Positions 1-25,542 of a stretch of 32,000 bases of DNA are shown here, piece after piece (positions within the stretch are counted from its first letter, which is position 1; each line of letters begins with the position of its first letter). A model generated the notes under the pieces. The model was not told where the DNA came from and made no database searches. It was given only the letters and a program-made list of their open reading frames with translations. The DNA is from Candidatus Saccharimonadota bacterium (lineage in GTDB: Bacteria; Patescibacteriota; Gracilibacteria; BD1-5; UBA2023). The stretch lies in NCBI GenBank assembly GCA_042852035.1, contig BAAFHK010000001.1:60001-92000 (forward strand), written 5' to 3'. The position numbers and the translations under genes were made by a program.

Positions 1-120
1 TCTCATGTCGTTGTCTTCCTTGTCTCAGATGTCTGATTTCCCACCATTCTTCAGGTGAGACCTTTTACCACAGGATCAGTGTGGTAAATAGTAAATTAGA
101 GATTTATTTTATTTTGTCAA

Positions 121-151
121 TATAAAAAAGATTCACGATTGGGTGAATCTT
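121..151 (-). terminator. Intrinsic terminator oriented for the minus strand
   Basis: Perfect 9-bp stem AAGATTCAC(128-136)/GTGAATCTT(143-151) with a 6-nt loop. Read on the minus strand, it is followed by a T-run. It lies downstream of minus-strand ORF 580-263. Confidence 0.6.
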
Positions 152-167
152 AGGTTTATACAAGTGA

Positions 168-189
168 AGGCCCGCGCAGTGGCGGGCCT
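168..189 (-). terminator. GC-rich hairpin at the 3' edge of GC-rich island 1
   Basis: 8-bp stem AGGCCCGC/GCGGGCCT around a 6-nt loop. The trailing U-tract is weak. Its composition is unlike the AT-flanked host terminators. Confidence 0.45.
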
Positions 190-262
190 CTTTACCATTC
201 CCTCGTTTCTCCTTTCATTCCTTACTTTCGTAGAAACTTAGGAGAATGGTTGTTGGAGGGGT

Positions 263-580
263 TCAGTGCAGCCGGAGTTTCTTCCGCTTGCTCTTGGCGG
301 CTTCGATGAGGTCATGCGCCGACTGGAAGGGTGACTTTTCGCCGTGGCGACGCTTCACACCGTGTTCTTCCAGCAGGCGCTCTTCCTCTTGCTTGAAGGC
401 AAGAATCGTCGGGGACAACTTCGTCCCCGAGGCGTGATTCTTGTCCAGTTCATAAGCCGTTGCCAAGAGCTTGGTCCAGCGGTCCTTCTTCTGGGCCGAA
501 CGCTTCTGCCGGGCATGCCAGCTTTGGCGCATCCGGTCACCACGGGACCTGTCATTTTCGTGAGTTTGCAGTTGTTGCAT
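263..580 (-). CDS. Hypothetical basic 105-aa protein on GC-rich island 1 (standard-code ORF ending in TGA)
   Basis: Uninterrupted ATG..TGA ORF (MQQLQTHENDRSRGDRMRQSWHARQKR...). A strong Shine-Dalgarno GAGGAGGGG (complement of 583-591) lies just upstream of the ATG. Codon third positions are G/C-biased. The other overlapping ORFs in the island look like GC-rich artefacts. No family recognised. Confidence 0.6.
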   Translation of the reverse strand: MQQLQTHENDRSRGDRMRQSWHARQKRSAQKKDRWTKLLATAYELDKNHASGTKLSPTILAFKQEEERLLEEHGVKRRHGEKSPFQSAHDLIEAAKSKRKKLRLH

Positions 581-656
581 TTCCCCTCCTCAAGGGAATA
601 GGTCAAATAATGAACTGGCGCCCCACGGCACCATCATCCTATTAAATGACACCTGT

Positions 657-707
657 AGTCTATCGCTTCTCTAGTTTCTTGTCAAACAAATTTTCTCATT
701 TTATATA
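657..707. promoter_or_regulatory. Divergent promoter pair sharing a palindromic -35 (TTGTCAA/TTGACAA)
   Basis: Plus strand: TTGTCA(679-684)-N17-TATATA(702-707), pointing toward sodB. Minus strand: TTGACA(685-680)-N17-TAGACT(662-657), pointing toward ORF 580-263. Confidence 0.5.
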
Positions 708-8729: not shown

Positions 8730-9194
8730 ATGGAAAATGTACAAAAGAGGAATCTCTCAAACCCATACAATACGTTCAGCACTATTTGTGAAACCTTCTC
8801 TCGTAGAGAAGGTATAGAAAGGAGATATTGATCTCTTCTTTTTCCCAGCCGATATGCGCCAGATATCTCTGGACTCGCACAGATTATAGCAAGAGGTCTG
8901 GATGGAAGATCGGGACCAGTAAGTATCGAGTTAACAACAATCTCAAGCAAAGTACAGAGGCGAATTGATGAGGTAGTGACTCAAATGTTAAGCTCAAAAA
9001 GAAGAATAAATCTCGCAACGAGAGATGGTGTAGATCAATGGAACGCTAAACACTGAATTTTTTATCCGAACTCTCTCTGAGAGCTTGAATATGTTCTTGC
9101 AATGAACGAAGGGGTTATGGTTCACTGAAGTATTCCTGATGTGATTTTTATTTCAGATGCTCTTTCTGAAAAGTATGAATGATTCCCAAAGTAA
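8730..9194 (+). CDS. Hypothetical protein (154 aa)
   Basis: MENVQKRNLSNPYNTF...GRSGPVSIELTT...WNAKH-G-IFYPNSL... 5 in-frame TGA, verified line by line. Tandem TTGACG/TTGACA promoters lie upstream at about 8662-8716. Confidence 0.65.
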
Positions 9195-9210
9195 AAAAGA
9201 GGAAATATTA

Positions 9211-9238
9211 TTGACATAGTTTATATAATATATATTAT
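9211..9238 (+). promoter_or_regulatory. Host-type promoter immediately upstream of GC-rich island 2
   Basis: TTGACA(9211-9216), then 16 nt, then TATTAT(9233-9238), in AT-rich sequence. The only downstream plus-strand ORF is 9278-9886. Confidence 0.5.
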
Positions 9239-9277
9239 ATACTTCACTTATCCAGGACTTGCACACGTCGTGCGAGA

Positions 9278-9886
9278 ATGGAAAGTACAACCACAGGAGC
9301 CAGCATGTCCCCATTTGAATCGTTGTTCGACCAAGGCCAAGGTCCCCAAGAGCTCGAATCCCTCTTCGAGATGCTTCAGGGCATCGAAGGACTCGAATCC
9401 CTCATCCGCAACCAGGGCCGTCCCAAGAAGCTCGACCTGGTCGACGCAACCATCAGCATCGCCATGATGATGATGGTTGATGTGCCCAAGGAAGTAATCC
9501 GGGATTCGCAGCTCAAGTCTGGCATCAGCCAGTTGAAGAGCGAACTGGAGTCTGCAGTGCAGGCCCACCTCGCACCGCTCGAGACGCTCGCCAAGGCCGC
9601 CGCCGATCGGCACAATCGTGCCCTCATCGCGCGGCTTGCGAAGCGGAAGCTCTCGCCCGAGGGTCTCCTCGAGCAGTGCACGCCGCGACTCGCGCTCGCA
9701 GTCGAAGCGTTCCGTCGTGAACTGGCCGAAGCACGCGCCGAACAGGCGATGTGCTACGCAGACTACTGCCACGGCGAACTCAGGACCATCGAGGCCGAGG
9801 CTCGGAAGCGTCACCATCGCTCGACGGCTCGCCGAGCAGGTGCTGCGGCCCGCCGGGTCAAGCAGAAGGTGCCGCCGAAAGGCTGA
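9278..9886 (+). CDS. Hypothetical 202-aa protein on GC-rich island 2 (standard-code ORF ending in TGA)
   Basis: MESTTTGASMSPFESLFDQGQGPQELESLFEML..NQGRPKKLDLVDA..., followed by an Ala/Arg/Glu-rich helical tail. Clear G/C third-position bias in this frame only. The overlapping ORFs (255 aa on the minus strand, among others) look like GC artefacts. No SD and no family recognised. Confidence 0.6.
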   Translation: MESTTTGASMSPFESLFDQGQGPQELESLFEMLQGIEGLESLIRNQGRPKKLDLVDATISIAMMMMVDVPKEVIRDSQLKSGISQLKSELESAVQAHLAPLETLAKAAADRHNRALIARLAKRKLSPEGLLEQCTPRLALAVEAFRRELAEARAEQAMCYADYCHGELRTIEAEARKRHHRSTARRAGAAARRVKQKVPPKG

Positions 9887-9925
9887 TGCATCAACAATGG
9901 GGCTCATGAGGCTCCTCACACAAGG

Positions 9926-9948
9926 CCGCCCTCGGGCGGACTTTTCTT
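9926..9948 (+). terminator. GC-rich hairpin plus T-tract at the 3' end of island 2
   Basis: CCGCC-CTCG-GGCGG, followed by ACTTTTCTTT. Confidence 0.5.
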
Positions 9949-9951
9949 TAT

Positions 9952-9983
9952 AAAAAAACCCTCTTTTAGAGGGATTTATTTTT
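9952..9983. terminator. Bidirectional host terminator (thrS 3' end)
   Basis: AAAAAAACCCTC-TTTTA-GAGGGATTTATTTTT. The thrS stop codon lies in the loop. Confidence 0.7.
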
Positions 9984-11864
9984 GATTTCTTCTCCGATTC
10001 TTCTTTCGAAGTCATCGATATATTCGGTCGTTTGAGTTTTTGTCTTAAAATTTCGTACCGCGAGACTGCTTGATTTCATCTCTTGTTCTCCGACGACAAG
10101 AATATAGTTTACATGATCTGTTTCAGCATTTCTAATCTTTTTCCCGAGAGAGTCTGACGAGTCATCAACGCTAACGCGAATATTCGTATCAAGAAGATTT
10201 TTCTTTACAGCATAACCATATTCTACGAACGCTTCACCCACTGGGATGACACGAACTTGCTCTGGAGCAAGCCAGAGAGGGAAAACTCCAGCGAAGTGTT
10301 CGATCATGATTCCCATAAATCGTTCAAGGCTTCCTGAAATGGCACGATGAATCACGACAGGTTGTTCATCTTCCCCTTGTTCATTTTTAAATGAGAGTCC
10401 AAATCGGTTTGGCTGATTAAAATCACACTGTATAGTCGCAAGTTGCCACTCTCGTCCGATAGCATCCTTGAACATGAAGTCAAGTTTGGGTCCATAGAAA
10501 GCTGCCTCACCTGGCATTGGTCGATAGTTCAGACCATTGGCGATTGCTGCATCTTCGAGGGCTTTTTCTGCGATTTCCCAGACGCTATTGTCTCAGAGGT
10601 ATTTTTCTGGAGTACTCATATCACGGATAGAAAGTGATACCCAGTATCCATCCATAAGTCCAAAAGTCGTATAGAATTCTTTAATAATATTTACAATTGT
10701 GGAAACTTCATCTTTGATCTGACTGACACGACAAAACAGATGTCCATCATCTTGAGTGATAGATCTCACACGAGTGAGTCCTGAAAGTTGTCCAGTTTTT
10801 TCATCACGGTAGACGGTTGCTGGTTCGAAATAGCGGATAGGCATATCACGGTATGAGAACTGATTATCCGCGAAAAGTTGCATATGGTGAGGACAGTTCA
10901 TTGGCTTCAAAAAGAAGTTCTCCTTCGAAGTTCCACCATACACTGAGAACATATCTTCGAGGTATTTTCCGGCATGTCCTGAAGTTTGATAGAGTTCTTC
11001 TTTCGCGAGGTGAGGGGTCCAGACTCGGTGGTATCCTTTATCAGCATGTAGGCTCCAGAGATAATCTTCTATTGCCTTTCTCATGATCATTCCTTTTGGT
11101 TGAATGAGTGGAAGCCCAGAACCAACAAGATCAGAAACCGTGAAAAGTTTCATCTTCTTTCCGAGGATTCGATGATCACGTTTTTTTGCTTCCTCCATCA
11201 TTGTCTTATAGGCATCAAGCTCAGTTCCAGTCTCGAAAGCAAGACCATAAATACGAGTGAGTTGTTTGTTTTTTGCATCTCCTCTCCAGTAAGCTCCTGC
11301 GAGTTTATCGAGGGAAAATGAGTCTTCAGAAATCTCATTTGTATTTATTACATGAGGCCCCTGGCACATATCGATAAAAGTCGAAGTACGGAAATCGAAA
11401 TTGGTTTTTCCTTGATTTTCACCTACAACGGATCGACCATTTGTATCTTCGATAGCATAGGAGTCAGGATTATTTAAAAACTCAAATCCTTCATATGCAG
11501 GGTTATGGAACTTTCCGATATTTGCAAAAAATGAAATCGTAGTTTCACCCTTCTTCTCAAGATCCTCAATCATTTCGAGTTTATAAGTTTCACCAAGAGT
11601 GGAGACAAGAGTTTTTGCATCATTTACTGAGAGTGAAAATTGCTTAAATTCCTGACCCTCACGAACAATGGCTTTCATTTTTTTCTCGATATCTTTGAGT
11701 TTGCTTTCTTCGAGTGTTGATTCTCCGAAATCGATATCATAGTACCAACCATTATCGACATCTGGTCCGATAGCGAGTTTCGCATTGGCGCCCATAACCA
11801 TGCGAGTGGCTTGTGCCATGATGTGAGAGAGGGAGTGACGGCGAGTAGAGAGAGGGAGTGACAT
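9966..11864 (-). CDS. thrS: Threonyl-tRNA synthetase (632 aa), no N-terminal TGS domain
   Basis: Starts MSLPLSTRRHSLSHIMAQATRMV..AIGPDVDNGWYYDIDF, which is the editing-domain HxxxH region. Class II core FLKPMNCPHHMQLF..RYFEPATVYRDE..GLTRVRSITQDDGHLF. One in-frame TGA (10593-10595) joins the two track ORFs. Confidence 0.95.
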
Positions 11865-24420: not shown

Positions 24421-25542
24421 ATGAATCGATACCTCAATACGCATGCTCGCATTAAACGAGCTTTGCGTAATAATCAAAAGGTGTATTCGGCGACTGAATC
24501 GTTTAAGAGATTTCGATGGTTTACTTTGGGGCTCATTGTATTGCTCCCAATTTATCCTTCTCTTGCGATTATTGGATCTGACTATGAGGTTCAGGCTGGC
24601 GATTATGATGAGACAACAATTATTACGGCGTATGAAGGGGATGAGGGAATGGAAGGGAGTTATATAAACAAGTCAGGTCTGATTAGTACCGATTTTGATG
24701 TTGTTACTTCGGTAAAAAAACAGCAACAGCAGGAGGAAAAAAATATGCCACTTAATGAAAATGAAAGGGCAAAAAGTTATAAAATTGTTTCTTGAGATAC
24801 GCTTGCTTCTATAGCAAAAAGAAATGGTATCACTCAAGAGGCGCTTGCTTGGGCTAATGATTTAGATCCAAGTGAATGACTTCAGGTTGGTGCAATTCTA
24901 AGAATTCCACCCGTTTCTTGAGTCGTTCATAAAATTGCAAAGGGGGATACTATTTCGGAAATCGCGAAGAAATATCACGTGGATCAAGATGAAATTTTCA
25001 GAATAAATCACATGACAGGTGATTCAACCCTGCGCATTGGTATGAAGCTCATGATACCTTGAGCTGCTCCAGTAAAATCAGTTACCGCATCAGATCCTGC
25101 TCCAGCGAAAAAAACAAATGATTTAAAGCCAATACCAACAGAAAGCCCAGGACTAAAACCAACAGTTGTTGATACAAAGACAGGACTGAAATCCCGTTAT
25201 GTCGTAAAATATACCTGACTTTCACGTGGTTTTGCATGGGGGAATTGTACTTGGTATGTTGCGCAAAATAAGACCGTAACATGGAGAGGGAATGCAAATG
25301 CTTGGATAAAGAATGCAAAAGCAAAGGGAGTTCCAACGGGTCAAAAGCCAATCCCGGGCGCTATCGTACAGTTCACCGGAAGATGATATAATCGCTATTA
25401 CGGACATGTTGGTATTGTTGCTGACGTAACGGATGATTACATTATTGTGAAGGATATGAACTATCGTAAAATCAATGAAGTTACTATCCGAAAGGTTCCA
25501 CGTGATGACTCAACAATAGATGGGTATATTTACGTTGATTAG
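24421..25542 (+). CDS. Secreted peptidoglycan hydrolase: N-terminal TM, 2 LysM repeats and a C-terminal CHAP domain (373 aa)
   Basis: LysM-like YKIVS-G-DTLASIAKRNGIT and HKIAKGDTISEIAKKYHV. CHAP-like AWGNCTWYVA....YGHVGIV. 6 in-frame TGA, verified. Confidence 0.85.

Follow-up and report, generated by a model that had tools for sequence, protein, structure and literature searches.

A conserved GC-rich gene cassette with a predicted self-locking mRNA in a Zoogloea episymbiont that reads UGA as glycine

A GC-rich single-gene cassette beside sodB

The DNA under study is a 32,000-nt stretch of the genome of HHAS10 (positions 60,001 to 92,000 of contig BAAFHK010000001.1, assembly GCA_042852035.1), which we refer to as the window. 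Near its left end, beside sodB, lies a GC-rich cassette on the minus strand, X1, with a single gene for a basic protein of 105 amino acids (aa). The metagenome-assembled genome (MAG) of HHAS10 comprises 1.3 Mb in three contigs and was assembled with PacBio circular consensus sequencing (CCS) reads (PMC9530719). HHAS10 belongs to the class JAEDAM01, formerly placed under Gracilibacteria, and uses genetic code 25, with UGA assigned to glycine by Codetta. In fluorescence in situ hybridization (FISH) it appeared as tiny cocci within Zoogloea clusters, and the Zoogloea ribosome signal falls near these cocci; it lives as an episymbiont of Zoogloea, a high-GC betaproteobacterium, and possesses ComEC (PMC11393006).

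The region 160-660 (island 1), which contains X1, has a GC content of 54.9% compared to 38.2% outside the two GC-rich islands of the window, in agreement with an earlier reading of this DNA from its letters alone (the original prediction), which had described a sharp GC rise at this position. Measured against a background of 500-bp windows (0.382 ± 0.030, maximum 0.468), the z-score was 5.5 for island 1 and 8.6 for island 2 (9260-9945, 62% GC), and beyond these two islands no segment exceeded 52% GC in 150-bp windows. The codon statistics, which had been proposed as a check, likewise departed strongly from those of the native genes. The GC content at third codon positions (GC3) of X1 is 0.72, compared to about 0.19-0.41 across most native genes (about 0.33), AAG makes up 88% of its Lys codons (native genes 33%) and CGC and CGG together 60% of its Arg codons (native genes 14%). 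Its Leu codons are mostly CTC, which resembles the native preference for CTY and not CTG. In addition, a Shine-Dalgarno (SD)-like motif, weak at best, was found upstream of only about 1 in 33 native code-25 open reading frames (ORFs), so that the description of the native genes as SD-less held. Within the window, an SD followed by ATG and an ORF of at least 100 aa was found only for X1, for the island-2 gene and for one ORF antisense to the latter.

Most of the parts that had been listed for X1 were located as claimed (Table 1). These are the clean basic ORF, the strong SD (GAGGAGGGG), the leader hairpin and the GC-rich 3' hairpin, and the TTGACA-N17-TAGACT promoter was recovered by our consensus scan. 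Two details were not borne out. The -35 palindrome was said to be shared with sodB, but this is not supported by our scan, which puts the sodB promoter (TTTACT-16-TATAAT) at 732-759. The AT-type terminator, described as having no gene to terminate, terminates X1, and the promoter of a second cassette (X2) follows directly. The end of the X1 ORF also had to be corrected, as its stop is TGA, a codon that HHAS10 reads as glycine; with this TGA end and no internal TGA, X1 does behave according to the standard code, as had been proposed. Taken as a whole, the original prediction was right about the composition, the codons, the SD and the presence of an own promoter and terminator, but the architecture of the RNA had escaped it, as had the sister cassettes.

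Table 1. Features of the cassettes X1, X2 and Y in the window (SD, Shine-Dalgarno sequence; CDS, coding sequence; UTR, untranslated region; MFE, minimum free energy)
Feature	Position	Strand	Basis
X1 promoter: -35 TTGACA 685-680, 17-nt spacer, -10 TAGACT 662-657	657..685	minus	consensus scan
X1 5'-terminal stem-loop, core GGTGCC-GTGG-GGCGCC 633-616	602..650	minus	RNAalifold helices 1-2
X1 SD GAGGAGGGG 591-583 with upstream local anti-SD TTCCCTT 598-592; short sequestering hairpin possible	583..598	minus	sequence, folding
X1 CDS, 105 aa, basic, three helices predicted; TGA at 265-263	263..580	minus	ORF, orthologs P0002/P0003/P0007
X1 anti-SD-like CCCCTCC, 1 nt past TGA; pairs with SD in full-length fold	255..261	minus	MFE, RNAalifold helix 4
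X1 structured 3' UTR; GGGAATG 202-196 pairs with 5' UTR CATTCCC or local CCATTCTCC	190..254	minus	helices 3, 19, 20
X1 GC-rich hairpin GGCCCGCC-ACTG-CGCGGGCC	168..189	minus	fold; terminator scans of L002, L005
X1 AT-type intrinsic terminator, stem 151-128, T-run 127-122	122..151	minus	scan
X2 start: -35 TTGACA 120-115, three 5' UTR hairpins, ATG 6-4	1..120	minus	sequence, folding
Y (island 2): TTGACA-type promoter 9211-9238; 5' hairpin 9258-9276	9211..9975	plus	
Y SD AGGAGCC 9295-9301; CDS 9305-9883 (193 aa); TGA 9884-9886		plus	
Y anti-SD GGCTCCT 9910-9916; terminators 9926-9939 and 9959-9973		plus	

Conservation of X1 in related genomes

Orthologs of X1 were found in three further lineages. 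P0002 (L001, run DRR438528) shares 80% aa identity with X1, P0003 (L002/L003, two SRA runs) 74% and P0007 (L005, an ENA assembly) 53%. The cassette is found within the sodB-recG interval of L001 and L002/L003; L005 ends short of sodB, and recG is located downstream of the X1 cassette there. A search for homologs outside the clade found none among 5.8 billion proteins and none among 1.84 billion representatives of protein clusters. Protein-pattern scans of GTDB genomes, JGI metagenomes and IMG/VR yielded no X1 relatives, exact-motif scans with the conserved UTR segment yielded none in GTDB or JGI, and tblastn against phage and plasmid collections gave no match. The same cassette, which the original prediction had suggested looking for elsewhere, is thus present in related genomes but not matched in the phage and plasmid collections. 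We conclude that X1 is a genuine cassette specific to JAEDAM01-class episymbionts.

The flanking genes of these lineages are 87-90% identical as protein, and the synonymous sites of sodB and recG are saturated (synonymous divergence, dS, at least 1.9), indicating that the lineages are well separated. Across them, the promoter, UTRs, CDS and terminator of X1 are conserved as one set. The arrangement TTGACA-17-TA(G/A/C)ACT is kept in L001, L002 and L005, and AT-rich promoter and GC-rich leader stay together as a single unit. Conservation is higher in the UTRs than in the CDS: the 5' UTR segment ATTCCCTYGAGGAGGGGAAATG is kept in all four lineages except for one C/T position, even where the synonymous sites of the CDS are saturated, and a CCTCC motif directly follows the TGA in all four. 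In L002 and L005 the GC-rich hairpin is followed by a T-run and is predicted to work as an intrinsic terminator.

In comparison to the flanks, X1 itself shows little synonymous change. Its dS is 0.28-0.41 as opposed to at least 1.9, and the proportion of synonymous differences (pS) among the window, L001 and L002 is 0.23-0.32 compared to 0.69-0.78 for the flanks (p 1e-7 to 5e-13). Both a nucleotide constraint imposed by RNA structure and a recent lateral exchange remain as explanations. The GC3 of X1 is 0.72-0.78 in the four lineages, compared to 0.33-0.50 in native genes. Lineage-specific changes in X1 comprise 18 strong-to-weak and 20 weak-to-strong substitutions (p 4e-4 against the native mutational bias), and at third positions 11 strong-to-weak and 5 weak-to-strong (p 0.054). 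The composition of X1 therefore shows no clear decay toward AT.

The interval between sodB and recG differs among the relatives. In L002 a gene with a GGDEF domain (811-2160) is located between sodB and X1, and L001 is without X2, recG following directly after X1. This insertion and this absence identify the interval as a variable spot. No mobility genes or flanking repeats were found around X1, and an explanation by a retron, CRISPR or mobile element was dropped as the flanks gave no support for it.

X1 encodes a basic, predicted helical protein

Several observations show that X1 is a protein-coding gene. Nonsynonymous divergence (dN) is lower than dS (Fisher p 5e-4 to 0.012), with dN/dS of 0.34-0.44 when the three closer lineages are compared with each other and of about 0.2 in comparisons with L005. 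The two indels observed are both in frame, and variable sites are distributed over the three codon positions as 24:14:32. Conservation as protein ceases exactly at the TGA. The 3' UTR nucleotides beyond it are conserved, yet with respect to the ORF they occupy three different frames, which indicates that a read-through tail is not under protein constraint.

The X1 protein has an isoelectric point (pI) of 10.4, 25 Lys and Arg versus 14 Asp and Glu residues, a net charge of about +11 and a grand average of hydropathy (GRAVY) of -1.41. Its AlphaFold2 model consists of three helices (predicted local distance difference test, pLDDT, 78), which are amphipathic or basic; no hydrophobic segments and no membrane helices were predicted. 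No family or fold match was obtained in Pfam, NCBIfam, PHROGs, PADLOC, PDB sequences, or with Foldseek against PDB and BFVD; the top Pfam match had an E-value of 0.016, which is under the cut-off of that family, and the top Foldseek E-value was above 1. We also considered X1 as a divergent bS21 or bL33 and dropped this candidate, as there was neither a Pfam match nor sequence resemblance. As background to this candidate, rpsU retains its SD in other SD-poor bacteria. The proteins bS21 and bL33 are often missing from this clade (PMC9297842).

Predicted folding of the X1 transcript

Transcription of X1 would start near 650. The corresponding transcript (650 to 160, minus strand) has a predicted MFE of -216 kcal/mol, compared to -159 ± 6 kcal/mol for dinucleotide shuffles (z -9.4), and its antisense strand has a z-score of -5.8. 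All 10 cassette transcripts that were folded gave z-scores of -2.2 to -7.9, compared to +0.6 to -2.7 for four native controls.

The consensus into which the four X1 sequences fold is made up chiefly of a 5'-terminal stem-loop, a long-range closure, a 3' UTR that is structured and a terminator hairpin. Helices 1-2 of the 5' stem-loop are 98-100% paired over the four lineages and show a compensatory change in two pairs (RNAalifold). The closure is predicted to join CAUUCCC, the SD and the AUG region to GGGAAUG, CCCCUCC and UGCA, which are located around the UGA and beyond it, and 94-100% of the cells of these closing helices are paired in the four lineages (RNAalifold). Over the whole consensus fold 92.4% of cells are paired, with eight double-change pairs compared to 4.1 ± 1.4 in shuffles (6 of 500 reach eight). 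The local hairpin UUCCCUY/GAGGGGAA is an alternative fold in which the SD is also hidden.

In Rfam 15, the cassettes and seven related loci had no match at gathering score, sub-threshold matches being noise, and the sole Rfam match in the window was a tRNA-Gln. A sigma-70-type scan of the window, L002 and L005, which leaves weak or atypical promoters outside its reach, showed no opposite-strand promoter within the cassette.

Sister cassettes X2 and Y share the build of X1

Besides X1 the window holds parts of two more cassettes, and the three are unrelated but share one build. X2 begins right past the X1 terminator and leaves the window at its left edge. The full cassette is present at 1825-2365 of L004, a short-read Logan contig (run DRR350542) that is identical to the window across island 1, and its CDS (L004 1938-2201) encodes 87 aa and ends in TGA. 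The protein contains a conserved ICPxCADWLR motif, and the CDS is followed by a conserved 3' UTR of about 150 nt, which is structured and shows covariation. Two types of X2 CDS occur, with about 33% aa identity, and they do not track the flanks. When L008 1-528, L002 2840-3345 and L004 1926-2440 were compared, the X2 CDS of L008 shared 77% identity with the HHAS10 type and 49% with that of L002, whereas its 3' UTR and recG start were 87-89% identical to L002 and 70-78% to HHAS10. This mosaic suggests that X2 CDS alleles are swapped within a conserved UTR frame. Sequence comparison thus argues that lateral allele exchange of a cassette is real for X2.

The third cassette, Y, occupies island 2, and its orthologs adjoin thrS in L006 and L007. 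As in X1, its SD has a predicted partner in the 3' UTR: AGGAGCC and the bases downstream of it pair with GGCUCCU, and three pairs of this closure show compensatory changes. In L006 (3001-3300) the N-terminal half of Y has a GC content of 29-33% in a genome of about 50%, a contrast opposite in direction to that in HHAS10. Two observations on the DNA of Y can be added. The hairpin CCCTCTTTTAGAGGG (9959-9973), which is flanked by a T-run on either side, received a terminator score on each strand and is probably shared by Y and the convergent thrS (9966-11864, minus). Antisense to Y runs an ORF of 219 aa (9907..9248, minus; standard code, TAA end), whose SD-like GAGGAGCC and ATG arise from the palindromic 3' UTR of Y; this ORF is probably incidental in GC-rich DNA.

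The products of X1, X2 and Y are basic or mildly basic helical orphan proteins. Neither X2 nor Y had a Pfam or PADLOC match, Y gave nothing significant in PHROGs, NCBIfam and PDB sequences, and its AlphaFold2 model is poor (pLDDT 57).

The cassettes are dispersed among housekeeping genes. The neighbourhood consists of ordinary chromosomal genes, with a family-4 glycosyltransferase, MgtC, an HMGL-like enzyme, GlyRS, ThrRS, ornithine decarboxylase, a LysM-CHAP hydrolase and RuvB among their products. The hydrolase gene (LysM-LysM-CHAP, 24421-25542) encodes a peptidoglycan hydrolase, which may be relevant to an attack on the Zoogloea cell wall.

The cassettes end in TGA

The native genes of the window contain many in-frame TGA codons. 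In sodB (782-1369) there is one, at 968-970, where SodB proteins carry Gly, and this is direct evidence for code 25 from within the window. Native stops are TAA (14) and TAG (11), and TGA accounts for 24% of 565 native Gly codons. In contrast to these rules, TGA ends all 11 cassette orthologs (X1, four; X2, four; Y, three), and it was not used for any of the 61 Gly codons of the cassettes (P about 5e-8 at the native rate, with the caveat that GC-rich codon choice would itself disfavour TGA). Most of the 11 orthologs retain GC-rich codons.

The next in-frame TAA of X1 (106-104) is located past the T-run of its terminator. In 6 of the 11 cassettes no in-frame TAA or TAG precedes the terminator T-run, which makes their messages non-stop under strict code 25, and a downstream in-frame stop is present in the other five. 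Annotation with code 25 or 4 gives the Logan protein entry P0001 (158 aa, 104-652), which reads through the TGA of X1 to the terminators. Y read through its TGA is identical to the NCBI protein P0004 (HHAS10_00590; 289 aa, 9179-10048), from a MAG labelled 'Candidatus Altimarinota', and this call also begins upstream, within the Y promoter region. Gene callers that use code 25 or 4 therefore mis-annotate the cassettes, and the class is invisible in current annotations.

A proposed translational lock

The interpretation we favour, to which we assign a probability of about one half, is that the X1 mRNA, stable and silent by default, would lock its own translation and would encode a small basic protein of a conflict or effector-like type. 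The RNA would be monocistronic, about 490-530 nt long and made from its own strong sigma-70-type promoter, and would consist of the 5' stem-loop, the SD, the 105-aa all-helical ORF, the UGA, the structured 3' UTR and the terminator hairpins, in this order. During synthesis, the local hairpin UUCCCUY/GAGGGGAA would cover the SD. In the finished RNA, CAUUCCC-SD-AUG would pair with UGCA..CCCCUCC...GGGAAUG, by which the ORF would be closed into a loop, and translation would require this closing helix to be opened. Trimming of the 3' end, a helicase or a temperature shift might open the lock, as might a first ribosome that reads UGA as Gly and runs into the anti-SD tract. The high GC content would then be part of the design, in the form of G-C-rich helices and GC-ending codons kept over long divergence. 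As to the protein, the charge of X1 and the allele swapping of X2 suggest that X1 is most likely a nucleic-acid-binding factor for conflict or host interaction; such a role would fit the allele swapping of X2 together with basic, probably nucleic-acid-binding, products.

A number of points weigh against this interpretation. X2 shows no convincing closure between the SD and the 3' UTR. The extreme fold z-score is specific to HHAS10 and amounts to only -2.2 in L001. The closing helices of X1 are almost invariant and therefore provide little covariation evidence for X1 itself; moreover, the alignment holds only four X1 sequences, and the structure was derived from that same alignment. The low synonymous divergence of X1 could reflect recent lateral exchange instead of constraint at the RNA level. 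Since the protein could not be assigned to any family or fold, what is said of its role is a guess. Finally, a lock alone explains neither the TGA end in 11 of 11 orthologs nor the SD in an SD-less genome, so that the retention of UGA, the SD and the GC-ending codons are not fully accounted for.

Alternative explanations

An assembly chimera, in which a foreign GC-rich fragment was joined into an AT-rich contig, had been raised in the original prediction. Apart from the abrupt change in composition nothing supports it, and it is for practical purposes refuted by the long-read CCS source (PMC9530719), an identical independent assembly (L004), orthologs at the same locus in other samples and the conservation of AT-rich promoter and GC-rich leader as one unit. 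A domesticated horizontal acquisition deserves more attention. X1, and separately X2 and Y, would have reached an ancestor of these lineages from an organism that is high in GC and uses the standard code, or from a phage or plasmid of such an organism, and would owe their SD, TGA stop and GC-rich codons to this donor, with selection needed to have kept these donor traits. This would agree with a GC3 of 0.72 against about 0.33 in native genes, with an SD confined to the cassettes and with a TGA end in 11 of 11 orthologs next to none among 61 Gly codons, TGA being the usual stop codon of high-GC bacteria. Zoogloea as a high-GC organism and ComEC in HHAS10 could be seen in the same light (PMC11393006). 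However, no homolog outside the clade was found in any protein or DNA collection searched, and at a flank dS of at least 1.9 one would expect neutral traits of a donor to have faded, whereas GC3 was kept and directional changes are balanced. The Leu usage is dominated by CTC like the native CTY and not by CTG, and the L006 ortholog of Y departs from the composition of its own genome. We consider an acquisition unlikely, and its fresh variant, a high-GC import wired to a host promoter as originally proposed, is not supported, as the whole unit is conserved together and no donor homolog was found in the collections searched. It has also to be asked whether X1 is a structured non-coding RNA in which the ORF is incidental, as long ORFs arise easily in GC-rich sequence. 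The extreme fold z-score, UTRs better conserved than the ORF, a dS lowered relative to the flanks and ORFs open on the antisense strand as well would suit such an RNA. It is nevertheless improbable, as dN falls significantly short of dS, four lineages keep the ORF open with in-frame indels, conservation stops precisely with the TGA, an invariant SD is correctly spaced from the ATG, and there is no Rfam match.

The hidden SD raises the question whether X1 resembles a type I toxin-antitoxin system, with a toxin mRNA locked by 5'-3' fold-back and an antisense RNA that neutralises its processed form. The predicted long-range pairing hides the SD and the local SD hairpin could act during transcription, two features that characterise aapA1/IsoA1 and hok/Sok (PMC5416894, PMC6733600, PMC9841398). 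A product of 105 aa that is strongly hydrophilic and without membrane helix, the lack of an antisense promoter in the scans of the window, L002 and L005, and the absence of PADLOC or Pfam matches make us doubt this strongly. The UGA end, in turn, could indicate host-directed genes, which would be carried by the episymbiont and translated on Zoogloea ribosomes after transfer of RNA or DNA. In the host, SD, GC-ending codons and UGA stop would all function as they stand, and a folded RNA would be nuclease-resistant, so that one idea would cover SD, GC3, TGA end and RNA stability; for the features left unexplained by the self-locked mRNA it is the most economical. In 6 of 11 cases the cassette mRNA is non-stop in the symbiont under code 25, the sequence past the TGA is not conserved as protein, and the composition of cassettes and genomes is decoupled in both directions. 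The location of HHAS10 on Zoogloea and the drop of the ribosome FISH signal nearby also agree with it (PMC11393006). All of this evidence is circumstantial, and on the other side stand the absence of an identified export route or transfer signal, the scattering of the cassettes among housekeeping genes, the downstream in-frame stop in 5 of 11 orthologs and the native-like Leu codon choice; a sequestered SD would, moreover, hamper host ribosomes too. We know of no precedent for the delivery of mRNA or genes between bacteria as an effector mechanism, and we regard host-directed genes as a long shot. In a weaker variant of the idea, UGA would be a context-dependent terminator on cassette mRNAs within the code-25 cell.

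Significance and comparison with known systems

Episymbiotic bacteria within the candidate phyla radiation (CPR) have become known mostly from genomes. The cassettes represent a class of orphan genes that breaks the local rules of composition, initiation signal and stop codon, yet is conserved and predicted to be RNA-regulated. This class allows two questions to be tested concretely: does UGA always stand for glycine in code-25 bacteria, and are some genes of the symbiont intended for translation in the host? If the cassettes were indeed host-directed, they would be nucleic-acid effectors passed between bacteria.

None of the known systems with which we compared the cassettes explains the combination of a self-hidden SD, a UGA end and an SD in an SD-less genome. 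Like islets acquired by horizontal transfer, X1 shows a sharp discontinuity in GC content and codon usage on a single gene, with expression signals unlike those of its neighbours. Unlike such islets, it yielded no donor homolog in the collections searched, occupies the same locus in diverged relatives and has not drifted in composition. Of the traits expected of a recent islet, X1 thus shows the deviant composition but neither donor homologs nor patchy presence; an ancient foreign origin is possible. A parallel in another respect is the T-DNA of Agrobacterium, in which genes in one organism bear the expression signals of the recipient. The likeness is conceptual only and lies in an SD, codons and a stop that fit the associated host better than the carrier. 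In contrast to T-DNA, no borders, no transfer machinery and no other sign of transfer were found for the cassettes, and their promoter is of a generic bacterial type, so that this parallel is a lead and not a finding. Standard-code phages predicted to infect code-25 Gracilibacteria and Absconditabacteria avoid TGA and so work in both codes (Liu et al. 2023, PMC10746230). The cassettes likewise follow standard-code rules beside translation with UGA as Gly. In contrast to these phages, they keep a terminal TGA in 11 of 11 orthologs, are single chromosomal genes and have no PHROG or phage-database match.

The closest parallel at the level of the RNA is found in the fold-back-inhibited type I toxin mRNAs of hok/Sok (plasmid R1) and of aapA1/IsoA1 and aapA3/IsoA3 (Helicobacter pylori) (PMC5416894, PMC6733600, PMC9841398). 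As in hok and aapA1, the full-length mRNA of X1 is predicted to be inert, with 5' and 3' regions pairing over the SD, and X1 has a local SD hairpin and is a small monocistronic gene with its own promoter and terminator. The predicted hiding of the SD by 5'-3' pairing and by a local hairpin is thus a type I trait that X1 displays. However, the toxins are membrane peptides of at most 60 aa, whereas X1 is a hydrophilic basic protein of 105 aa; its ORF is far longer, its entire CDS is GC-rich and structured and its terminal UGA is read as Gly, and no antisense RNA gene was found for it with a sigma-70-type promoter scan. With a large hydrophilic product and no antisense RNA gene seen, X1 does not belong to the type I toxin-antitoxin systems. 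If X1 is indeed a self-locked mRNA, locking by 5'-3' fold-back would extend from tiny toxin peptides to larger soluble proteins, and to a new phylum.

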